From positions 12,462,001-12,526,000 of the forward strand of contig OX597814.1 in assembly GCA_951406725.2 (NCBI GenBank): 64,000 bases of DNA, read 5' to 3'. The notes under the pieces were generated by a model. The model had not been told where the DNA came from. It saw only the letters and a program-made list of their open reading frames with translations, and did no database searches. How positions within the stretch are numbered: position 1 is the first letter of the stretch; each line of letters begins with the position of its first letter. Source of the stretch: Octopus vulgaris. Taxonomy: Eukaryota. Both the position numbers and the translations under genes were made by a program. This document shows, in pieces, positions 3,955-60,436 of the stretch.

Positions 3955-4040
3955 CAGAGAGACAGAGAAACGGATATATATATATACATATACATATAGA
4001 GAGATAGATATAAAGATAGATAGACATAAAGATAGATAGA
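3698..4040. repeat. Compound microsatellite (TATC)n/(TA)n/(GA)n/(GATA)n
   Basis: Direct read. Confidence 0.95.
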
Positions 4041-5335
4041 TGGATGGACAGACAGATATCATGTCAACTTGAAGTCACGAATAAGGTCTTCTAGGTGTCG
4101 TACGTGACAATCATATGGTATTAGAAGAGAAAGATATCTCTGCTTATTCACTGGAGGGAGAGGGGGATTTCTGTGTGTCATTCTAATTATTTGTTATCGT
4201 TCACAAGTACCGACGGATACATACTCATAAAAGCGCACATGCAAACATATAGGGATGCATAGAAACAAACATGCGTACAAACACACATTCATGAGTCAAC
4301 AGGGGAGCACCTACGTGATCTATTTACCTTGTAGAAACAGAAACTACATCGCTATCAACTCACACCTCACCATTTTAAAGAATGAAGGTGTCATAAAATG
4401 TATTCCTAGATACTCATTACAAGGTAGAACTGTAACATATACGGACTCCTTTGACCATAAGTTGGCTCGATTAGCGGTTGACCCATGGTTAAAATTACTA
4501 CACCACTAACAGCAGCACAGATTCGTATTTATAAACATTTATATACGAATAAAAAGCCCCAATAACGTCACTCGATTAGCTAGAAATAAAAATCAAACAT
4601 ATTTTAAATCATATCTCATTAAATAATTAATTCCCAAATACCTTCCAGTAAGACTGGACGTACGTGGTTGGAACACCTTTAGTTGTGGCATTACTCGACC
4701 AGAGTCTACTTTAGATAAGAGATCAAAAGAAAGGAAAAAAAAAAAGAAAACACACATTTACTTATACACAGATATACTCATACGCACACACATCTGATGA
4801 AGATTACGAGACTGAAAGAAATGAATTCGTTAAATTCATATTTTTATATGGGAACAATATTGACCTTCAAAATGACGTCAAGACATAACTAAATATTTTT
4901 TTTTTACCCTGGAAAGAGGGAAAAATCTGCACAGTTATGAATCAATATGCAGAGCGCAGAATGATGTGTGATACCTCTTGCTTGCTCCTCCACCGGCGGT
5001 TGAAAAGTGATCTAATTTTCACTTTCAAAATGATATTGTAGAACACTGAGTATTCAATAATATCCACACAATAATAGCATTGACAAGTATTATCAACATC
5101 ACATACCATTATCAACAGCTGTTTTGGAAGCATTTACGGATGCATTCTTAGATTACATCATGGTAAGAAACTGTCTATCTTAAACATAGACAGCAAAGGT
5201 AGAAATAGAAAGTGACATGTTCATCAACAACCATGATGGAACAAATGAGCGCCACTTGTGTTTTCGTCTTTTATACATACGCTGCTTTTGGAACCATTCC
5301 TAGGTTGGATCTACAGTTTATATTAGATTGGGTAC

Positions 5336-5469: not shown

Positions 5470-6755
5470 AATCATTCAACAGAAAGCGTTGTCTTTGTTT
5501 GAGGACCTGAAGAAAAAATATCCGGAAGAAAAAATATCCAGCAGCGAAGTACTGTAAGGAGAAGGGGTTTCCTTTTAAGGTCTTACTTGTCTAGATAATG
5601 TTCTTGGCTACCCGCAAAACATCATAGATTTTGATCCCAACTTTACCGTTGTATACCTCCCTCTGAACACCACGTCTCTTCTGCAGCCAAAGGATCAAGG
5701 AAGAATTGCTATCTTCAAGCGTTACTATATGAAGCGTAATCTGCGGCAAGCAATAGCTTCAACTGATCTTGATGAGTCCACCACACTTCGTGACATTTGA
5801 AAGGCTGTACAGAACATAGCAGTAGCATGGAATGATGTACAGAGCACGGCTATGAATGACGTATGGAAGAAACTATGCCCGCAATTTATGAATGGTTTTA
5901 AATTATTTGATAATGTTACCGTCAATAAGACATTGGTGACTACGAGCAAAGAACTGGAAATGGATTTGGAGGAGGAGGATTTGATAGATTTATTCGAAAA
6001 TGACAAGCGCGCAGGAGTGTCTGTGTGGTAAGTAGCTTGCTTACCAACCACATGGTTCCGGGTTCAGTCCTACTGCGTGGCACCTTGGGCAAGTGTCTTC
6101 TGCTATAGCCCCGGGCCGACCAAAGCCTTGTGAGTGGATTTGGTAGACGGAAACTGAAAGAAGCCCGTCGTATATATGTATATATATATATATATATATA
6201 TGCGTGTGTGTGTTTGGGTGTCTGTGTTTGTTCCCCTAGCATTGCTTGACAACCGATGCTGGTGTGTTTATGTCCCCGTCACTTAGCGGTTCGGCAAAAA
6301 AGAGACCGATAGAATAAGTACTGGGCTTACAAAGAATAAGTCCCGGGGTCGAGTTGCTCGATTAAAGGCGGTGCTCCAGCATGGCCGCAGTCAAATGACT
6401 GAAACAAGTAAAAGAGTAAAAGAGAGCCAATGAGGAACGAGGATTCGATAGAGCTTCACGAGCAGCAGAATAAAGAAGAAAATGCGGCAAGCTTTTGCAT
6501 ATATCGAAAAACGTCTTTCAATATCCGAGGATATGGATTCAAATGCTCAACGCTTTACCAGGATCATGGGGGCTTGTCACGAAGCTTTTGCTCCTTGTAA
6601 TGTAATCCTTGAAGAAAAGAAGACATTTCCAGGAACTCTCAACCGGTTTGTTAAGCGCATCAAGCATGGACAGCCAGATTTGATGTTGAAGATCCATAGC
6701 CATCTACATCCATGATGTAATTGACGATACACAGCCGTCTACATGTGCCATGTAA
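5470..6755 (+). mobile_element. Degenerate Tigger/pogo (DDE_1) transposase relic interrupted by a SINE
   Basis: Translation LDNVLGYPQ...VVYLPLNTTSLLQPKDQGRIAIFKRYY matches the Tigger LP(P)NTTSLIQP(M)DQG motif; stops and frameshifts; SINE at 6009-6426. Confidence 0.85.
6009..6426 (+). mobile_element. tRNA-derived SINE family A (~410 bp, internal TA/TG tract)
   Basis: A-box-like TGGCTGTGTGG consensus (TGTCTGTGTGG here) and B-box-like GGTTCAGTCC; near-identical copies elsewhere in window; tail GGCGGTGCTCCAGCATGGCCGCAG..GAAACAAGTAAAAGAG. Confidence 0.92.
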
Positions 6756-7159: not shown

Positions 7160-7212
<53 letters not shown>

Positions 7213-7285
7213 CACATTAAGTACAGGATATCATCAACGAGTGAAAAATACGTAAACACACGAGAGGTAAGTACAGGAAATATCA

Positions 7286-7347
<62 letters not shown>

Positions 7348-8104
7348 CTGATGACTGGGGATTTTTCCTTGTGTAGTTGTCTTCTACTCTGTTTTTTCGT
7401 TGTTAAAAAAATGGTCCGTTCCATGCTGTTTTTACTTTTTCATTTCTCGTTGAGTTCTACGTCTGTTTGTGGTGTCCTGTACACACGTATATATATTTAT
7501 ATATGCATGTATATATACATGTAGATGTAGGTACGTACATATATGTTTGTATGTATGCATATATTTTATTTATTACACTATTGTATGACTGAGCGCCCTC
7601 GCGTCAATTCGATTTGATTCGTTTCGTTTCGTTTCTCCTTCTTCTCTAAGCTGGTTTATATATATATATACATGTACTCGTCATAACATATTGAGTGACT
7701 GTGGCCATTTGGTTGATAAATTACTTGTCAATACAATACTCTTCCCCTCAGGTCAGCCAGTTCAGAAAAGTATTTTTAATCTCTTTCTTTCCTGATACTC
7801 TATCTTGCCTGTCTATTTCTCTTTCTCCCATCTCTGGCTCACTTTACCAATCTACTTTGCCTGCTTGCTTACTTGCCTGTCTGCTTATATACCTGCCTGT
7901 CTTGCACGTATGCCCGTTTCTGTCTCTCTCTTCTCTCTTTGTCTCTGCATCTCTGATTAACTTTCTTCTCATCTTTCCAATTTTAACAATCGTATTAGAT
8001 GACACTGAATCATACACATACTCACATATTTGAGTATGATAACTACAAATAAGTTTTGAATATACAGATATACGTATTGATTGTATATGCAAATGTGTAA
8101 GTAT

Positions 8105-8394
8105 AATTAATTGGCATTCCTTCGATACAACTTGACAAAATCAAAGCATGTCACTTCGGGTATTTCCGTGGATGCAAAGGACAGTTCGATTCTGTTTTCT
8201 TCTTCTTTGAAATTTGCGGATTTTACATAAACACATGAAACAGGTAAGAACAAATATGCAAGGTTTTTTTTTTTTCTTCAAGTTTAAAATTGCTGGCATA
8301 ATTTCGTTATATCTATTACTCCACAACCCACGGAAATACCCGAAGTGAAATGTTTTGATTTTGTCGAGTTGTATCGAAGGAATGCCAATTAATT
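8105..8394. mobile_element. MITE (element 8113-8386) with ~59-bp TIRs starting GG and 8-bp TSD AATTAATT, Merlin-like
   Basis: GGCATTCCTTCGATACAACT...TTCCGTGG at 8113-8171 is inverted at 8328-8386; AATTAATT at 8105-8112 and 8387-8394. Confidence 0.8.
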
Positions 8395-8803
8395 TGTATA
8401 TGTGTATGTGTTACGTGAGTACAATGGTGTCGACGCAGCATCACAGAATGGTCGAGAAATTCGCTTCGCAATTAAGAGATCCTATGCTTGTTCCCTCTGC
8501 GTGGTACCTTGGGCACGTGTCTTTTCCCTTGGCTTTGAAGAACACAAGGACGTCTGATGCATTCTGGGTAAGCAGAAACTTCGTTGAATAGATTGTGTAT
8601 GTTGTTCAAAAATATCAAAAGTACAGCCTTGTCAGTTACGGAATGTATCACGCTGACTCTGTCTGAAAATATGTCAAATGCGCACGTGACCCTCAAATGT
8701 TCAGCCCTTAATATGATGATAATTAAGTTATCAGGAAGCCGAATCGGTATCGTCAAAACGATCCATTTGCTTTTACTATAAATAAACACTCATCATGCAT
8801 ATG

Positions 8804-9354: not shown

Positions 9355-9725
9355 TATACATATATAAAATAAGAAAATAAAGATGAATCAATTAAAAATT
9401 ATATTTATTAATTACAAAAATAGCGATAATCTCTGACAGCTGTTAAACTGTTATGTTCTGATGTGTTAAATGTACGGAGCATTTCTCATTTTTCTTAAAT
9501 AAATATAAATCCCGGTTTATTTTTGATTACCTGTTTTTTTTTTAATATTAAATCTGATATTCAAAATAAATTATAGGTAAGAAACCAGTACATTCATTGG
9601 ATGTTATTATCCGTTAATGAGGCTTATTTGACCTCTAATCGAACTTATTACAAATAGGAAATAGTTGCGCAACAAGGCACCAATGTTTGCCGGAAATAGC
9701 AGTCGATAACTGTACGATGCTATGT

Positions 9726-17979: not shown

Positions 17980-18149
17980 TGTATGTATATATATATACAT
18001 AAGAGGTTAGCTCAGTTAGAGGTTAAAATATGCGTCTAAGGGATAGAAGTATCCATTATATTAGCGGTATATTATCTATGTTTAACCAGGGACATATATA
18101 TGCAAGCATATTATGCTCATAAATTATAGGTAAAGACAAGGATAAATAG

Positions 18150-18318
18150 TAAAGAAAACAGAAAATGGAGAAATGTGGATGAACAATTGACTTACATCAA
18201 TTATTATTTATTAATTCAATGCAAATAGATTGCAGTCTACTTGTATTGAATTAATAAATAATAATTGATGTAAATCAATTGCTGCTCATCAATATTTCTC
18301 CATTTTCTGTTTTCTTTA
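18150..18318. repeat. Imperfect fold-back inverted repeat (~83-bp arms) ending at (TA)n
   Basis: TAAAGAAAACAGAAAATGGAGAAAT... vs ...ATTTCTCCATTTTCTGTTTTCTTTA, centre ~18233. Confidence 0.9.
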
Positions 18319-30281: not shown

Positions 30282-31317
30282 CACTTAACGCTACGACTCC
30301 ATACACACACACACATATATAATCTTCAGAAAGAAATTTGTAAAAAATATATATACATTAATCATACCACTCATGATAATCACACCCCTTTTGTAGCACT
30401 CGTAATCGCAAGCTTGTTTCTAATTAAAGAAACGGCTTTGGTCAATAAACGCACAAATTTCTTTAATTAGTTTAACAGATAAATCGAATAAGCAACAACA
30501 CAGTCCCTCCTATAAACTCTTCAGTCTTGTCAAAAATAAAATACAAAACACTTTTGCAAAGATAAGTTATCCATGGATATTAATACCTATTACAATACGA
30601 TACACTCACAAACATTTCCGCAAAATAGATATCTCTTTTTAGCGAAGCAGACTTGACCAGAGATAAAACGACAAATCTTTATAGCTAAAATTAGTTTGAT
30701 AGATGAATTCGGTGAACAACATCGCATGCATACAATAAACAAAATAACAAAATATTTTACCATTAATCTGATGTTACCGCAAAACAAAATGTAAACATCT
30801 AAAGACTCCTATCATTAACAAAAGACAAACAAGCACATGTAATCAAGTCTTGAAACCTTACAAACCTGACAAAATCGAAATGTGAAATACACACCCCTAT
30901 TTACGAAACTCAATTCCAAACGCACACCTGTTTCTAATAAAATTACATAAGTGAGTATGGAAACAGACAAACTTAATTAGAGCAACCGTTAAATCGAACA
31001 CGTAACCGACTAAAAAACTTTATAAAAACAGCTGAAAACGAGCCCCTAATACAAATTGAACGAAAGTATGCATTAGGCCACAAATTTAATCAAGAAAAAC
31101 AAAAAATTTCAACCAAGCGACAGATGCAAAAATTGCAATCAATCAACAAATGCAAAAATTGCAACAAGTCAACGGATGCAGAAATTATATGACAACCAAT
31201 GAGTAAATACAAACAACAGTAACGGAAATACACAAATCAAATTATAGAAGCACACGTTTGAATGTTGATGTGGCTTGAAACTCGCGTCGAATAATAACCT
31301 TTCAGCTTCAATACGTA

Positions 31318-34977: not shown

Positions 34978-35175
34978 TTACCTCATTTCCATAGAACATT
35001 ATGCCCTCTTTGTCTCAAATCGTATACCTCGCCCACTTCTCTTAACTTCATTGCGCCCGCTATTTCTCTTTCTTCTGACGAAAGACTACTTCTTGAAACG
35101 TTGGGACTTTATCATTCTTCTTCTGAAGCATTACACACCATACCTATCAAACTTTGTTTTATCCTGTACACATTT
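34978..35175 (+). mobile_element. ~200-bp hammerhead-bearing element next to (TATC)n
   Basis: Homologous to 44970-44992 + 45371-45550; follows (TATC)n 34882-34976. Confidence 0.75.
35071..35106 (+). ncRNA. Minimal hammerhead ribozyme (Penelope type)
   Basis: tctt-CTGACGA-aaga ctact tctt-GAAA-cg-TT-ggga; AACGTT palindrome replaces stem III. Confidence 0.65.
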
Positions 35176-35429
35176 ATTTAATGTTTATTGTCTTTACTCT
35201 CTCTCTTTATATGTATATATACATATACATACATATATATATATATATATAATAATAAATATTAGGGAATAAATCCAAATTTACAGGGAAAAAATCAGAT
35301 TTAGGATTAAATCCAATTTTATAGTAAAATATTATATAATATTATTAGAGACAAAACCACTATTTTGCAAAACAAACAAGGAAAGACTTAATCAATACAT
35401 AAAATTTTAATAAAAAGTCAAAAAAACCG

Positions 35430-35472
35430 CCACTACAATTGTTTCTTGTCTTGATCGACAATCTTCAGGTGG
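35430..35472 (-). ncRNA. Minimal type-I hammerhead ribozyme
   Basis: Minus strand: ccac-CTGAAGA-ttgtc gatcaa gacaa-GAAA-caattg-TA-gtgg. Confidence 0.82.
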
Positions 35473-37779: not shown

Positions 37780-37945
37780 TCGATATAATTCTGATATAGC
37801 ACTACGTAAAGAAAAACTTCTCTGATCTCGCGACACTCTCCTCCGAAAACCCACTGCTCATGTAGCACCCTTACTCGGTTGTATTTACGCCTTCAGAAGA
37901 CTGTTTCATCTATCTCAAAGATCTTTCCTGGACCCCTTATCTGAA
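37780..37945 (-). mobile_element. Merlin (ISXO2/IS1595-like) transposase fragment
   Basis: IRGPGKIFEIDETVF*RRKYNRVRVLHEQWVFGGECRE. Confidence 0.8.
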
Positions 37946-37988
37946 AATTCTGAAAATGAAATTAATTTTTTCTATAAATTAATAAACA

Positions 37989-38057
37989 AAAAGTTAATAA
38001 CTTTTAATTTTAAAAGTTAATAACTTTTAATTTTAAAAGTTAATAACTTTTAAATTT
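37989..38057. repeat. 3 x 23-bp tandem repeat, each unit palindromic (AAAAGTTA-A-TAACTTTT)
   Basis: AAAAGTTAATAACTTTTAATTTT repeated. Confidence 0.9.
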
Positions 38058-38399
38058 GCAAATTTTGGGTAATTTTACCAACTGAGACCCATCGTTGTAC
38101 GCATGACCGTAAATCTCACACTGGTCTCTGTTTCCATAGTAACAAGCAAAGCTGTTGTCTGCCCTGTTTTCATTGTAACAAGGATGCTGTACTTATCGAG
38201 ACTGTGACACTTTCATCTCTGCAACCACCATCACTATTTTTGACGAACGTTATCACTTTGTACCTGTGTACTTTTGGATCTTAAACTTCTGCACCTCATT
38301 ATCATCATTTTGACCTGTATTTTCCTGGACATTTTCTACAACATGTCAATTCTACATCTAGATATAGTATGACCACAGCAAAATCATTTAACCTTTCGT

Positions 38400-45370: not shown

Positions 45371-45439
45371 TCGTCTCTCTGTCTCAAATCGTATACCTCC
45401 CCAGCTTCTCTTAACTTCATTGCGCCCGCTATTTCTCTT

Positions 45440-45475
45440 TCTTCTGACGAAAGACTTCCTCCTGAAACGTTAGGA
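45440..45475 (+). ncRNA. Minimal hammerhead ribozyme (homolog of 35071-35106)
   Basis: tctt-CTGACGA-aaga cttcc tcct-GAAA-cg-TT-agga. Confidence 0.62.
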
Positions 45476-45560
45476 CTTTGTCCTTCTTCTCCTGGAGCAT
45501 TAAACACCATATCTATCAAACTTTGTTCTTCCTGTACAACATTATTTGTACAGATAGGTA

Positions 45561-51554: not shown

Positions 51555-51610
<56 letters not shown>

Positions 51611-51614
<4 letters not shown>

Positions 51615-52315
51615 TATATATAGAGGGCATTATACATACATGTCCCTCTTAGCGTTTGGCATGTATATATAATGCCTTCTGGCATGTATGTATAATGCCC
51701 TCTATATATAAATTAATATGTTCAATAAGAAATAATTATTTTCGAAATTTTTTCTCTTATGAGGTTTTTACGCTATCTACCTGACAATTTCTTGTTAAGT
51801 TTTCCTTATTAAGTAGTTGTCCTTAATTGCTAAATTTTTATTCCGAAAAAACTTTTCCTCTCCCGAAATGCAATTCGTAAAAGTTCGCCATTTGACCGGA
51901 TGTAATATATGTAAACTCACCCATGTGCTTCGTTTGATGTTGAACAGTTAGCTGATCGACTTAAGCGGGGCAGGGTCGTTGTTTATTTATAATGCATTCA
52001 GGCCTGCTGATGAGTACGTAAGTATGAAATCACTGTGATACAGGTCTATATTTTTTTAAATGTCTTACTTTGAAAAATTGCATTCGGTAGGATTAGTAAT
52101 ATTTTTGGTAGAAATGACTAATTGTCCCTCTTAGCGTTTGGCATGTATATATAATGCCTTCTGGCATGTATGTATAATGCCCTCTATATATAAATTAATA
52201 TGTTCAATAAGAAATAATTATTTTCGAAATTTTTTCTCTTATGAGGTTTTTACGCTATCTACCTGACAATTTCTTGTTAAGTTTTCCTTATTAAGTAGTT
52301 GTCCTTAATTGCTAA

Positions 52316-52319
<4 letters not shown>
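51611..52319 (+). mobile_element. ORF-less hammerhead mini-element in (TA)n: 482-bp period, 197-bp direct repeats, short inverted 5' segment
   Basis: 51641-51837 = 52123-52319; 51612-51642 is the reverse complement of ~51683-51714; hammerhead at 52000-52047. Confidence 0.85.
52000..52047 (+). ncRNA. Type-I hammerhead ribozyme
   Basis: aggcctg-CTGATGA-gtac gtaa gtat-GAAA-tcac t gtga-TA-caggtct: 7-bp stem I, 4-bp stem II with GNRA loop, palindromic stem III, intact core. Confidence 0.88.
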
Positions 52320-52381
<62 letters not shown>

Positions 52382-52782: not shown

Positions 52783-52871
<89 letters not shown>

Positions 52872-53053
52872 AGGGCTTAGTAAAATAAATTACTTTGCCG
52901 CATACTGAACTCATTAGAAATAGCAGCTAAAAAAAACTTCTTTAAAAACTATCTCCAATACTTAAAGAAAACCTCTCTCATATAGTGTTTGCTCAACTCA
53001 ACTCACGGAAGTATGGGGGTAGAGACATTAAAAAATCAAATGCAAAGGTTATT

Positions 53054-53106
53054 TGAGAACGTACGTTTCAAGATTAGTCAAAATCGACACTTCTATCATC
53101 AGCTCA
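53054..53106 (-). ncRNA. Type-I hammerhead ribozyme (inverted copy)
   Basis: Reverse complement of 53657-53709. Confidence 0.72.
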
Positions 53107-53656
53107 GAACTCCTGGTTTGGATTTGAAAACACTGAAAGCGGGAGCATACCCTTTCGGCCTGCCATCGCCTCTGAAGATCTGCTCAAAACTAACAGTGCT
53201 AGCAAATTCAAATATGCAAGCGAAGAATTTCTGCTCTCCTTTCCACCAGCGTGGGTTAAAATCAGCAAACACTATGCTTTTTTCGGTAAAATCCGAGGCA
53301 TTATAAAGAGAGAGATGAATTATAATTTCAACAATTGAGGGTAAAATTAATTAATTAATCAATTTCACCAAGTATTCAGTACTGAATACTTGGTGAAATT
53401 GATTAATTAATTAATTTTACCCTCAATTGTTGAAATTATAATTCATCTCTCTCTTTATAATGCCTCGGATTTTACCGAAAAAAGCATAGTGTTTGCTGAT
53501 TTTAACCCACGCTGGTGGAAAGGGAGAGCAGAAATTCTTCGCTTGCATATTTGAATTTGCTAGCACTGTTAGTTTTGAGCAGATCTTCAGAGGCGATGGC
53601 AGGCCGAAAGGGTATGCTCCCGCTTTCAGTGTTTTCAAATCCAAACCAGGGAGTTC

Positions 53657-53709
53657 TGAGCTGATGATAGAAGTGTCGATTTTGACTAATCTTGAAACGT
53701 ACGTTCTCA
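53657..53709 (+). ncRNA. Type-I hammerhead ribozyme
   Basis: tgag-CTGATGA-t aga agt gtc gatttt gac taa tct t-GAAA-cgtacg-TT-ctca; palindromic stem III. Confidence 0.75.
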
Positions 53710-54011
53710 AATAACCTTTGCATTTGATTTTTTAATGTCTCTACCCCCATACTTCCGTGAGTTGAGTTGAGCAAACACTATATGAGAGAGGTTTTCTTTA
53801 AGTATTGGAGATAGTTTTTAAAAAGGTTTTTTTAGCTGCTATTTCTAATGAGTTCAGTATGCGGCAAAGTAATTTATTTTACTAAGCCCTTTTATATAAT
53901 GTAATAATTTGAATTCGCCTTAAATGGTCCCTTTGTATACTGAATACTTGGTGAAATTGATTAATTAATTAATTTTACCCTCAATTGTTGAAAATATATA
54001 TATATATATAT

Positions 54012-56870
54012 AACTTAGAATAACTTAGAAAGGTTTTGGCCAGTATTGGCCCAGGCCATGTCTAACTTAATAGCACCACCTGGCGAAGTCTTTCAGTTCA
54101 GGATTTGGGCACCAAGGCCCATTCGAGCAGAGAGTTATTGTTTGCGGAGACATATCCGGGTGTGGGTGGTTTCTCCGGTACTGTTTGAAGGAATTTGTCC
54201 AAAGACTTCTTGAATTTTGTGTGGTCAGTTTCTTTTTTGACGTGTCCTGGTGTAATGTTGAAGAGAGCGGGTCCAATTGAGGTGAAATAGTTGTGCCGTA
54301 TTGTCGTTATGTGATGCGATTTAGATTTTTGTTGTGGACGGATGGCACGTGGTCCAAGCCTTGGATGTATTTTGAAGGTGATGCCAACATCATTCGGACA
54401 GTGCGTCTTTGGAGTGAATACAATTTCAGCTTCTCTAGTCTACCCCAGTAGTCAAGGTCTGACATGCCATCTATCTTTTTTGTGATTGACCTTTGGGGAG
54501 CTTCAATTCTCATAATATTTTGTTTTGTGTAGGGAGACCACAGTGGACAGCAATATTCAAGGTGGGGTCGGGCAAAAGTGGAGAAGAGAAGGATTATAGC
54601 GTGGGAATCTCTCGACTGGAAGGTTCTGAGAATCCAGGAACACATTCTGCGGGCCATGTCAACTTTGCTGCTTATATGTGTAGCCCAGCTTATGTTGTTG
54701 TCCACTGTTACTCCCAAGTCTCTGATGTTGTTGGATGCCATGAGAATTTCTCCAGAAGGAAGAGAGTATGGGAGTTTCAGAGCGTCCTCCCTTCCAAAGT
54801 GGATCAGTTCGAATTTGTCTTCATTTAGCAACATGTTATTCTTTTCCGTCCATTGGACAACAGCCAGTAGGTCTGACTGAAGGTTTATTCGGTCATCCAC
54901 GCCATTGATGACCTTCTGGAGCTTGGAATCATCAGCGAAGGTTCTGATGTTACTGTGTTTGATGGTGTCAGTAATATCATTTATGTAGATGATGAAGAGA
55001 AGTGGGCCCAACACAGTGCCTTGTGGGACACCACTGCTGACTTTGGCTGGGCTAGGATTTGACTCCTTCGACTACAACATGTTGGGTTCTGTTAGACAGG
55101 AAGCACTTGATCCACTACAGCAGCTTTCCAGTGACACCAATATTGGACAGCTTTCTCAGAAGGATCTTATGATCAACCCTGTCAAAGGCCTTGCTAAAAT
55201 TAAGGTAGATGACATCAGTGTTGGAACCTTCTCCCAAGGCTCTCAAAATGTCATCAAAATGATGCAGTAGCTGCGTCAGGCAATCTCTCCCATTACGGAA
55301 TCCATGCTTGTTGGGGTTCAGCATATTATGACTCTCAAGGAAGTGAGTCATACGCGATCTCAGCACCCTCTCAAATACCTTGATGATATGAGAGGTGAGT
55401 GAGATTGGACGGTAATTCACGGCAAGCGATTTGTTTCCTTTTTGAAAACTTGGACAACAGACTGGGATAGAAGGTCTTCTGGTATATATCCAGCATCCAG
55501 TGAGTTCCGCCAGAGATTGGCTAGAGGGGGTGCAAGTTGGTTTTGTCACATCTTCAAGACACAAGCAGGGAACCTATCGGGACCTACTGCTGAATTATGC
55601 TTCATTTCCTTTATTGCTGCTAAGACATCAGGAGCGCCAAATGTTATGTCCGATAAAGTGTATTGGGGAGTAACATCACTGATACAGCCCAGATCAGTCA
55701 TATCAGGATTGCTGAAAACAGAGCAATATTGTTTCTGCAATATCTCTCCCATGGTTTTGGCATTGTCTTGAAGAGTACCATTTTCATCAATCAGAGGGCC
55801 AACAGTAGAACCAGTGACTCTGTGTTTTTTTGCAAATGAAAAGAACACTTTGGGATTGAGTTTGATCTTCTCAATGGCCCAGGCCTCTTCAGCTCTTCTC
55901 GCTGACTATTGATGATAGACATCATGTTGTTTTGGAGTTTATGTTTTTTAATCTCTAGCGACGAGATGGCAGGTACGTTGGTGTGTTGCTGTTGACAGTA
56001 TTTCAGAATGTTGATCTTTTTGTTAATTCTTTTAATTTTCCTTATGAGAGATTTTCTATTCCTGGGGATTCGACACTTAGATTTGTTTGCAGATCTTAAT
56101 GGGGTGTGTCTTGCACATATGTTCGTGATGGTGTCTACAAGTGACTGCCAGGACTTTTTGATGTTAGTGGGTGTGTATGTGTGCGTGAAGGACCAATCGA
56201 CTTGTGCAAGATCATTATTGATCGCTTCCCAGTTTGCATTGTGGAAATCCATAGTGTCAAATGGATGAACAGGAGGGATGACATTTGTCTTGCATTTTGG
56301 CCAGTGAAATCTCAGATCACAGAGAACCATGTCATGATCGGAGAGTAGGGTTTTCTCCACTGCAATATTGTGGATAGTATCAGTGTGATTGCTGAAAACT
56401 AAGTCTAAGACGTTTTTGTGACATCTCGTTGGTTCGAGTACCAGTTGGGACAGGAAGAAATCATCCATGAAGTCAAGAAGCGATTCCACTGACTTCCTGT
56501 CAGGGGTTGAGAGAGAAGAACCTGGCGGCAGACTGTTTGTAGACCAGTCAATCCCGGGAAGGTTGAAGTCTCCCATCATTAAAATGCTGTCAGGTTGACA
56601 CTGCTGAATGAAACACTTTATGCTGTTGAGGCATTCCTTGAAGCATGGTAGGGGCGTTTGGGGGGGTCTGTAGAGCCCAACTACTGTTAAGTTGTTGGTT
56701 TGACTGAATACAGCGACTGCTTCGCAGTATCCATTGGAAAATATGTTCATGGCTTCTGTTGAGAATGAATCATGGACATAAATGGCAGTCCCACCCTTTC
56801 TTCTGCCAGCACGATCAGCACGAATGGTTTTGAAATTTTTAACTTTCACCTCGGCTTCCAAGTGGAGGTC
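54012..56870 (-). mobile_element. CR1-like LINE ORF2 (APE endonuclease + RT), 5'-truncated, frameshifted
   Basis: APE: GGTAIYV, GLYRPP, MGDFNLP, PTR..NVLDLVF, LSDH. RT: NYRPISLTS, FSKAFDRVDH, GVPQGTVLGPLLF, FADDSK. 3' tail (TTCTAAGTTA)2 at (TA)n. Confidence 0.93.
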
Positions 56871-56874
56871 ACTA

Positions 56875-57915
56875 AGATGGGTTTATGTATTCGCTTTGCA
56901 AGGTTGTTGATGTGAATTCGTGTGTTGAAACGGATTTTGTTGTATTTGAGGATGGTCGTGTTGCCATCTTAGCCAATGAAAACACACGCATTATATATTT
57001 GGTGGTCACTTGCTTCACCTTTATTTTATATAAATTGTATTTCGGCCAGAGTTCTTTCGTCACACATCTGTTGACCTCATCAGTGGTCCTTTGCTTTCTT
57101 CCCTCTTTTTTGTGTCCTACCTTCCTAACAATCTGCCATTTTTTATTCCCATTGTATGTGTCTTTATTTGCGCATGCGTATATCCCTGAGTGTGTCTATG
57201 TTTAGTAAGTGTGTGTGTGGGAATGTGTATGATACTTGCATTATCAATATCCCTTGTTAATTCACGTTCGTTTAATTTACTTTTATTTATTTCATTCATT
57301 TGTTTTTATCTACTTACTTTTTCACTTATTTCTTTATTGTATTAATTTAATTTAATTTATTATATTTTGTTTATGTATATAATTATTTAATTCCATTTAT
57401 TTATCAGTCTATTGTATTAGTTTCATATTATTATTACTTTACGGGGATCTTACACTGTCATAGGTTGTGGTGTGTGGGGCGTGTGTACTAGTGTTCCATT
57501 CTAGTTTTCTATTTAGGCCAGGTTTATTTTCTATTATGTGTGTAGCTTCCGTAATTTGTCTAAGTGTTGCGTCCGTTCTGTGATGGACAAAATTCTAACT
57601 TCTATGTTGTTGAGTGAGTCACCGCGTTCCCACTCGGCGTGCTGGTATAGAACCAATGAGCTCTTCTCTTCCTTAAGTTCTCTTCAATGCTCATTTACCC
57701 GCACTCCTCTGCTCCCAGCTATCTCTCCTACGTACGTTGTTTTCTTAGTTCTGCACTGCCCCTCTGCGGGCTAAATCTACATACAATACAGTTCTTATCA
57801 GTATAGGGGATTCTATTAAAAGGGTAGGTTCTGCTGATTAGGGATTTGATAGGGTTACTTGGCCTTTCTACAACCTTAATTCTTAGCTCAAGCTTGTCTA
57901 GGGCCTTTCTAAAGT
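56875..57915 (-). mobile_element. Penelope-like element (Neptune-type) 3' fragment: GIY-YIG endonuclease relic plus 3' non-coding region
   Basis: Minus strand KVVERP..IKSLI..PF..CIVC; C..K.TYVGE..SRGVRVNEH; LYQHA; RQITEATHIIENKPGLNRKLEW; hammerhead downstream. Confidence 0.82.
57044..57089 (-). ncRNA. Type-I hammerhead ribozyme in the Penelope 3' region
   Basis: Minus strand: gg(a)cca-CTGATGA-g gtca acagatgtg tgac-GAAA-g aa c-TC-tggcc. Confidence 0.75.
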
Positions 57916-59299: not shown

Positions 59300-60436
59300 T
59301 ACTCTTCTCTATTCTGGGTACAAGGCCCAACATTTTGAGGGGGTGCCGGTCGACTAGATCGACTCCAGTATACAACTGGCACTTAATTTATCGACCCCGA
59401 AAGGATAAAAGGCAAAGTCGACCTCGGCGGAATTTGATCTCAGAACGCACAGACAGACGAAATACTTATTTCTTTACTACCCACAAGGGGCTAAACAAAG
59501 AGAGGACAAACAAGGACAGACAAACGGATTAAGTCGATTATATCAACCCCAGTGCGCAACTGGTACTTATTTAATCGACCCCGAAAGAATGAAAGGCAAA
59601 GTCAACCTCGGCGGAATTTGAACTCAGAACGTAACGGCAGACGAAATAACTATTTCTTTACTACACACAAGGGGCTAAACATAGAGAGGACAAACAAGGA
59701 CAGACAAACGGATTAAGTCGATTCTATCAACCCCAGTGCGTAACTGGTACTTATTTAATCGGCCCCGAAAGGATGAAAAGGCAAAGTCGACCTCGGTGGA
59801 ATTTGAACTCAGAACGTAACGGCAGACGAAATAACTATTTCTTTACTACCCACAAGGGGCTAAACATAGAGAGGACAAACAAGGACAGACAAACGGATTA
59901 AGTCGATTCTATCAACCCCAGTGCGTAACTGGTACTTATTTAATCGACCCCGAAAGGATGAAAGGCAAAGTCGACCTCAGCGGAATTTGAACTCAGAACG
60001 TAACGGCAGACGAAATAACTATTTCTTTACTACCCACAAGGGGCTAAACATAGAGAGGACAAACAAGGACAGACAAACGGATTAAGTCGATTCTATCAAC
60101 CCCAGTGCGTAACTGGTACTTATTTAATCGACCCCGAAAGGATGAAAGGCAAAGTCGACCTCGGCGGAATTTGAACTCAGAACGTAACGGCAGACGAAAT
60201 AACTATTTCTTTACTACCCACAAGGGGCTAAACATAGAGAGGACAAACAAGGACAGACAAACGGATTAAGTCGATTCTATCAACCCCAGTGCGTAACTGG
60301 TACTTATTTAATCGACCCCGAAAGGATGAAAGGCAAAGTCGACCTCGGCTGAATTTGAACTCAGAACGTAGCGGCAGTCGATATACTGCTAAGCTTTTCG
60401 CCCGGCGTGCCAAAGTTTCTGCCAGCTCACCGCCTT
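59300..60436 (-). repeat. SINE family C with tandem array of five ~184-bp internal units
   Basis: Units start at 59467, 59651, 59836, 60020, 60204; SINE head at ~60385-60436; alternative tail at 59300-59466. Confidence 0.93.

Follow-up and report, generated by a model that had tools for sequence, protein, structure and literature searches.

A stretch of 64,000 nucleotides of Octopus vulgaris DNA (the window) carries, at positions 51611-52319, an insert of 1.4 head-to-tail copies of a 482-bp non-coding repeat within a TA microsatellite. The locus is best read as a dispersed young copy of a retrozyme family, and Penelope-type retro-insertion of such a family is considered probable. Held with moderate confidence is the more specific proposal that the insert comprises 1.4 units from a family of animal non-LTR retrozymes, and that a Penelope-like reverse transcriptase and endonuclease copied a predicted circular RNA past its own start into (TA)n.

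Structure of the Insert

The features of the insert are collected in Table 1. The repeated part (51641-51837 and 52123-52319) is exactly 197 bp long, shows no differences between its two copies and has a period of 482 bp, as an earlier reading made from the sequence alone had described; the TA runs on both sides, 52 bases on the left and 60 bases on the right, were likewise found as described there. The absence of differences in 197 bp makes the recent insertion proposed in that reading reasonable. TAAATT is present at both junctions of the insert, and the bases after it differ between the two sides. The window contains no second copy of the 482-bp unit.

Table 1. Features of the insert and its flanks (positions in the window).
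Feature	Position	Strand	Basis or remark
Left (TA)n target run	51560..51611	.	Sequence
Inverted 5′ tip, antisense of 51683-51714	51611..51642	-	Sequence comparison
Partial second round, 5′-truncated 0.4 copy, pseudo-LTR-like	51641..51837	+	Identical to 52123-52319
One full 482-nt unit, 33% GC, no ORF	51838..52319	+	Sequence
Predicted RNA rod that presents the hammerhead	51834..52118	+	51834-51897 pairs with 52056-52118; inner arm 51900-51999
Type I hammerhead	52000..52047	+	Motif scan, fold prediction
Hairpin just upstream of the 3′ end (= 51783-51821)	52265..52303	+	z −6.3 plus, −2.6 minus
3′ end zone	52314..52319	+	52318/52319 in the present copy; ends of other copies correspond to 52313-52314 (51831-51832)
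Internal tandem, 23 bp × 2	52139..52185 (also 51657-51703)	+	Tandem repeat search
Right (TA)n target run	52319..52378	.	Sequence

The inverted left end measures 29-32 bp, in agreement with the sequence-only reading: 51614-51642 is the exact reverse complement of 51683-51711 (29/29 bp; 31/32 when counted from 51611). It is an antisense copy of an internal stretch and no terminal inverted repeat. The outer end of the tip lies on the unit's own TATATATA (51703-51710), one of two such stretches in the unit, and its inner joint has two bases in common with 51641-51642. Classification as a MITE was rejected, as the tip also matches 52165-52196, 123 bp inside the right end, and there are no inverted repeats at both ends. 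The longest stop-to-stop frame of the unit is 50 codons, whether it is read as a line or as a circle, and the earlier statement that the unit lacks an ORF holds. An autonomous Penelope-like element was also rejected, since its single ORF with reverse transcriptase (RT) and GIY-YIG domains is absent from the unit and the (short) DNA contigs of the repeat show no run-on.

Hammerhead Ribozyme

The sequence-only reading had called the hammerhead intact. Both core boxes (52007-13 and 52026-29), stems I and II and the cut site bear this out; the departures are a G-U pair at 10.1-11.1, where G-C is usual, and a stem III with a predicted p of 0.00-0.03 in the single strand. Stem I (52000-06/52041-47) has 7 bp, stem II (52014-17/52022-25) has 4 bp and a GUAA loop, and stem III (52029-39, AUCAC-U-GUGAU) is a palindrome with one central U; cleavage is predicted after 52040, at an AUA cut site. 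Among 20,000 shuffled units, which may be slightly short owing to the shuffling, none carried a motif as good and 12 carried a minimal one. Rfam gave no hammerhead among its two matches for the element, nor among 150 of its 166 matches for the whole window, and exact hammerhead patterns of 27-32 nt hit no loci in metagenome and viral contigs. The G-U pair may weaken cleavage. In two DNA-type sequencing runs pair 10.1-11.1 is A-U in 21% and 39% of the depth; a G>A substitution at 52014 turns the G-U pair of stem II into A-U.

In isolation the hammerhead folds no better than its shuffles (z −1.2), and in a short context (51960-52090) stem I is predicted to be displaced (p 0.03-0.04). Within the whole insert stems I and II are predicted with p 0.89-0.99 and stem III with only 0.01-0.02; the fold holds both cut ends side by side within stem I, likewise with p 0.89-0.99. 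The stem III duplex is predicted at −10.1 and a double hammerhead, the two-strand minimum, at −30.5 kcal/mol; the palindromic stem III is accordingly predicted to form only in a dimer. With one ribozyme that is predicted to need a partner, the present copy would be unable to release the unit RNA alone. A weak, palindromic stem III of this dimer type is the design of most metazoan type I motifs (PMC4209133), and dependence on the dimer was demonstrated for axolotl retrozymes (PMC7229834). A diverged relative in one of the sequencing runs (X2) keeps the second core box and, as read by eye, a stem III that is palindromic with a different centre. The minimal hammerhead of metazoan Penelope-like elements, as described in PMC4209133, has an extra base between positions 9 and 10.1, a long helix II and G10.1-C11.1, whereas the motif of the insert has no extra base, a 4-bp helix II and G-U, and is nearer to the “canonical” metazoan type I form.

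Predicted Fold of the Unit RNA

As a plus-strand circle the unit is predicted to be 66% paired and to fold at −129.5 kcal/mol, against −88.8 ± 5.1 kcal/mol in shuffles (0/60 as low, z −8.0); the minus-strand circle has a z of −3.5. The rod has a z of −7.0 on the plus strand and −1.5 on the minus strand (40 shuffles per strand). The unit fold includes 20 G-U pairs, and A-C occurs in none of its six 1 × 1 mismatches. The background set for the rod comprised 71 stretches, 60 of them after removal of 11 of low complexity; four of the 60 reached z ≤ −5, all folding alike on both strands, as DNA palindromes do.

The contigs of four sequencing runs supplied 35 listed substitutions, of which 12 are unpaired, 15 keep a pair and 8 break one, where 13.4 ± 2.2 were expected (p 0.014); among the 20 common substitutions 4 break a pair, where 8.6 were expected (p 0.011), both p-values being only indicative since the fold was predicted from the present copy and the variants are non-independent. 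Half of a double change at 51942 and 51957 in run X8, which replaces G-C with A-U, was counted as one of the “breaks”. A strand-specific fold together with variants that mostly spare its pairs points to selection on the folded plus-strand RNA, the strand of the hammerhead.

According to the predicted fold, the 3′ end sits in an unpaired linker between the hairpin 51783-51821 and the base of the rod. The hairpin at the right-hand end of the insert is inferred as a candidate docking site of the reverse transcriptase. The ends of the duplicated part (51641; 51834-51837) nearly match the positions at which the predicted rod has its two feet (52118/52123; 51834/51838). Other copies show this agreement again at the 3′ side, whereas at the 5′ side it may be chance.

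Repeat Family in Sequencing Contigs

At least half of the unit's words are contained in 20 of the 24 listed runs (7 studies, two organism codes). Contigs from four of these 20 (X2, X3, X8 and X11; 4 studies, 2 organism codes) were compared with 51611-52122; X3 and X11 are DNA-type runs, and X2 and X8 are assigned to RNA by guess only. The two DNA-type runs yielded 1163 and 1215 matching contigs, with identity of at least 95% for 78% of them in X3 and 77% in X11, and the two presumed RNA runs yielded 20 and 17. Judged from these contigs, the unit is an abundant multicopy family of the host genome. The X2 and X8 contigs cover the unit in a few dominant variants, unlike the mix in DNA, which would suit transcripts. 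Between the present locus and the dominant X2 contigs there are differences at about three positions, all of them outside the repeats.

The joint 52122→51641, which goes back by 482, was found in X3, X11 and X8 and among the loose ends of X2, i.e., in all four runs. The junction varies slightly among contigs; one of 400 nt from X8 runs exactly through it, with 94 letters on its short side. One junction contig has a depth of 4025-4865, compared with 15-54 for the sparsest listed pieces; the depths give a rough hint of a hundred or more 482-bp joints, although summed depth is no copy number. The recurrence of the period in independent samples supports the earlier proposal of a more-than-unit retro-insertion of a small ribozyme-bearing element. 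It also bears on whether the duplication is an assembly artefact or a chance event at a single locus. Microsatellites flank the insert on both sides, and the locus-specific left junction has no unambiguous contig (read-contig depth is 0 at 51611-51628 in three of the four runs and ambiguous in the fourth), but the equal period and joint in independent samples of two organisms, together with an RNA fold and a hammerhead motif that are far from chance, leave this explanation hardly credible.

Contig ends at 51831-51832 were found in three of the seven X8 records listed, and two contigs continue from there as (TA)n; the 3′ end of the present locus is the equivalent of 51836-51837. Loose ends read by eye indicate further 5′ ends close to 51650, next to a TA run, and close to 51696. 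One X3 contig joins antisense sequence of about 51972-52003 to the sense strand at 51733 (also by eye), a second inversion with the same geometry. No contig of the four runs spans two hammerheads, the contigs being too short for two motifs, so that multimeric donors are only inferred.

Of the loose ends listed, the four that lie before 51640/51641 all run on into the end of the unit itself and not into flanking sequence. This run-through joint speaks against a miniature LTR-type element (a TRIM or a plant-style LTR retrozyme) with 197-bp LTRs and a 285-bp interior, an origin for which the identical flanking direct repeats and the TG at the start of the repeat could be cited. The repeat does not end in CA, the type I hammerhead lies in the interior, and other copies have their 5′ ends elsewhere; we regard such an element as very improbable. 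Plant LTR retrozymes are also non-coding and hammerhead-bearing, with direct repeats at both ends, but they are described with a type III hammerhead in both LTRs, PBS/PPT and a 4-bp target duplication (PMC7761336), whereas here one type I motif stands outside repeats whose boundary is unfixed.

The share of DNA contigs that continue into unlike sequence is 0 (short contigs; 24 of 115 loose ends listed). The contigs do not run off into a longer element, and the case named as a refutation in the sequence-only reading, copies always attached to a long RT/GIY-YIG ORF, is not borne out. They also bear on a possible origin of the unit as terminal repeat in an autonomous Penelope-like element, raised to a 1.4-mer by local DNA duplication or unequal crossover. 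Pseudo-LTRs of such elements carry type I hammerheads (PMC4209133), 21 Penelope-like elements are reported to match Xenopus retrozyme families at their ends, a satellite route for retrozyme tandems is discussed in the same preprint (10.64898/2026.07.22.740005), and a minority branch into an ORF could hide in short contigs. The unit nevertheless closes on itself in 4/4 runs, no ORF starts after the hammerhead, and in the rod, which is one RNA fold, the sequence that follows the 3′ end zone downstream is paired with sequence lying downstream of the ribozyme. Local duplication, moreover, leaves the two-sided (TA)n, the common 3′ ends and the inversion unexplained, and we consider this origin improbable.

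Insertion Model

Target-primed reverse transcription characteristically leaves a narrow 3′ end, scattered 5′ ends and inversions, and twin priming, known from L1, amounts to second-strand priming on RNA. In the model that we favour, multimeric donor loci would be transcribed on the plus strand, two hammerheads would pair by way of their palindromic stem III and cleave after 52040, and the 482-nt monomer would be closed by a host ligase. A Penelope-like protein would then nick (TA)n, and reverse transcription would begin internally, 274-279 nt downstream of the cut site, within the single-stranded linker. Copying would pass the ligated cut site at 279 nt and its own start at 482 nt and halt at 679 nt. 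The inverted tip could arise if the other target strand primed on the RNA's own TATATATA (51703-51710) or if the cDNA end folded back, leaving the joint with its 2-base overlap; the TATATATA stretch under the outer end of the tip could pair with the nicked (TA)n target.

The sequence-only reading had offered an RNA copied past its start and a miniature non-autonomous Penelope as alternatives; as presented in PMC4209133, PMC7229834 and 10.64898/2026.07.22.740005, the two are one published model. Penelope-like elements as a rule show partial tandems, 5′ pieces in inverted orientation and (TA)n targets (PMC8557442). In vitro, a Penelope-like protein from the green anole initiates at an internal site, cleaves AT-rich DNA and elongates both strands of the target (PMC11167929). 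O. vulgaris has 30 recently active Penelope families, which are candidate helpers (PMC13282606); the word “ribozyme” has no occurrences in that paper. The Naiads of cephalopods are described as long dead (PMC8557442). The analysis turned up no helper; a probable Penelope-like remnant at 57920-56880, 4.6 kb away, was rejected, since it has no DNA similarity to the 482-bp unit.

A cut linear monomer would give only 279 nt, yet 679 nt were copied. This length implies a template that was either an uncut multimer or a circle closed by ligation, unless the enzyme jumped; from the genomic scar alone these three are indistinguishable. An uncut linear multimer accounts for the scar almost as well as the circle. 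The same family and the same Penelope-like helper could have worked from an uncut linear multimer, or from a linear monomer if the enzyme jumped between templates; the hammerhead would then be idle or act later, and a circle would not be required. Work on the anole element favours this: hammerhead cleavage is dispensable for insertion in vitro, where uncut RNA is the main substrate, hammerhead mutants insert unimpaired and no RNA reads end at the cut site (PMC11167929). Eight of nine Xenopus retrozyme dimers showed no cleavage in vitro (10.64898/2026.07.22.740005). The same partial tandems are made by autonomous Penelope-like elements several kb long and by clades that have no hammerheads (PMC8557442), and stem III is predicted to be unstable in the monomer. 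Against a purely linear template stand the preservation of the hammerhead core, both stems and the palindrome, which extends to the diverged X2 relative with its still palindromic stem III, the predicted fold that holds both cut ends together in stem I (p 0.89-0.99), and the accumulation of retrozyme circles in 3/3 animals tested (PMC7229834). We rate the linear template as somewhat unlikely and retain the circle as the preferred template.

Comparison with Known Systems

Metazoan non-LTR retrozymes measure 220-245 nt in coral, 350-390 nt in mussel and 331/353 nt in axolotl (Cervera and de la Pena 2020, PMC7229834), and retrozyme units of 51-972 bp were reported by Li, Clavereau and Pollet (2026, 10.64898/2026.07.22.740005). 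The present unit shares with them the type I hammerhead, a head-to-tail arrangement of units a few hundred bp long, a GC-content below 50%, the lack of an ORF, a strongly self-paired predicted circle that leaves the ribozyme free and, as in axolotl, a dimer-dependent stem III. At 482 nt it exceeds the 150-450 bp range given in PMC7229834. An “active” copy in the sense of Li et al. has no fewer than two successive units that bear a complete hammerhead in each, whereas the present locus has one motif and is on that account filed as a monomer derivative or dispersed copy. The fixed internal 3′ end, the (TA)n target and the 5′ inversion also set it apart, no such description being found for retrozymes in the literature consulted. 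Taken together, every feature testable in the sequence matches a metazoan non-LTR retrozyme, except that the locus has one motif instead of two.

The insertion pattern of Penelope-like elements is present as well, with a partial tandem, 5′ truncation, an inverted 5′ piece and a microsatellite target. As in Penelope/Poseidon, Neptune and Naiad, the partial tandem stands as a pseudo-LTR, the 5′ piece is inverted and the 3′ end lies downstream of the hammerhead (PMC8557442, PMC11167929, PMC4209133); as in the endonuclease-bearing elements described there, the microsatellite target masks any target duplication. In contrast to these elements, the unit has no RT or GIY-YIG ORF, its hammerhead lies outside the duplicated part, and the inverted piece starts internally and not at the 3′ terminus. 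The 30-40-bp tail, optional in Penelope-like elements, is absent at the present locus. Its 3′ end lies 274-279 nt past the cut site, compared with about 85-92 nt in the anole element, by subtraction from PMC11167929.

The non-autonomous Chlamys elements of Chlamydomonas (MRC1, Chlamys-N4_cRei) are likewise small non-coding dependants of Penelope-like elements, with pseudo-LTRs, head-to-tail arrangement and microsatellite targets (PMC8557442, PMC9977147). They differ in belonging to green algae and to a clade mostly without canonical hammerheads, and in the (C)n target given in PMC9977147. Their 3′ ends, according to these papers, resemble a known autonomous partner, whereas no partner is known for the 482-bp unit.

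Neighbouring Repeats in the Window

The surrounding window has a GC-content of about 30-44% and contains many microsatellites and broken LINEs. A palindrome of 1035 bp (52864-53898; 99% over 1038 columns) begins in the (TA)n tract 500 bp to the right of the insert; an additional 61-bp piece (53938-53998) and a further TA run come after it. In both arms a degenerate hammerhead-like motif whose stem III is palindromic lies about 200 bp from the arm's outer end (53661 on the plus strand, 53102 on the minus strand). Its appearance is that of a second Penelope-type or retrozyme family inserted head to head.

The minus-strand remnant at 57920-56880 is, we presume from pieces of a GIY-YIG-like motif, the probable broken 3′ end of a Penelope-like element; Pfam gave no support for three of its frames, the frames scored excluding the piece with the catalytic-type motif. 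It continues into an AT-rich tail and, at 57083, a minimal hammerhead that has the extra base before stem II, and abuts a LINE. A relaxed hammerhead scan found five sites in the window (35075, 35468, 35537, 52007 and 57083) against 0.04 per shuffled window. Minimal hammerhead-like motifs are present at 35075 (+), 35468 (−), 35537 (+) and 45444 (+); those at 35468 and 35537 form an opposite-strand pair, and 35006-35179 is 89% alike to 45375-45547.

A tandem array of a SINE-like repeat (59374-60385; 5.5 × 184 bp, 96% matches) has dispersed relatives at 31317, 35963, 40183 and 57924. Broken LINEs lie at 54307-56882 on the minus strand (endonuclease and RT pieces) and at 530-2190 on the plus strand (RT and zf-RVT). 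Two dispersed families of non-coding repeats, 86-97% alike, have copies of about 410 bp at 6010, 23990, 36490, 37140, 42290 and 46300 and of about 385 bp at 9725, 12513 and 44993. Strand-symmetric foldbacks at 8091-8408, 18001-18285, 7201-7485 and 37801-38085 (z −5 to −13 on both strands) are probably MITE-like or inverted insertions.

Novelty and Significance

This kind of element and the insertion model are already published. The copying of a circle beyond unit length by Penelope machinery was proposed in 2014 (PMC4209133) and 2020 (PMC7229834; PMC7761336), and Penelope-like elements were named as likely helpers of retrozymes (PMC7229834). A 2026 preprint calls animal retrozymes non-autonomous Penelope sequences and reports a phylogenetic link to Penelope-like elements, while it favours local tandem growth and concedes that evidence on the life cycle is limited (10.64898/2026.07.22.740005). 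What is new is the family itself and the full set of Penelope insertion marks on one retrozyme. Open-access literature listings searched for hammerhead, retrozyme and ribozyme returned no report of such a family in octopus or cephalopods.

Animal retrozymes are known, yet their mode of movement is still a proposal. How they move becomes testable with a family that is young and abundant and has a defined 3′ start, a (TA)n target and inversions. Tentatively, the unit may be a viroid-sized, rod-like circle of 482 nt with a dimer-only hammerhead, an actively spreading parasite of Penelope-like elements, and the locus may record a whole insertion, from a start in a fixed linker, through rolling past the cut site and its own start, to second-strand priming on its own (TA)4. 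If this is true, the locus would be direct genomic evidence of the movement of animal retrozymes, which publications propose without showing.
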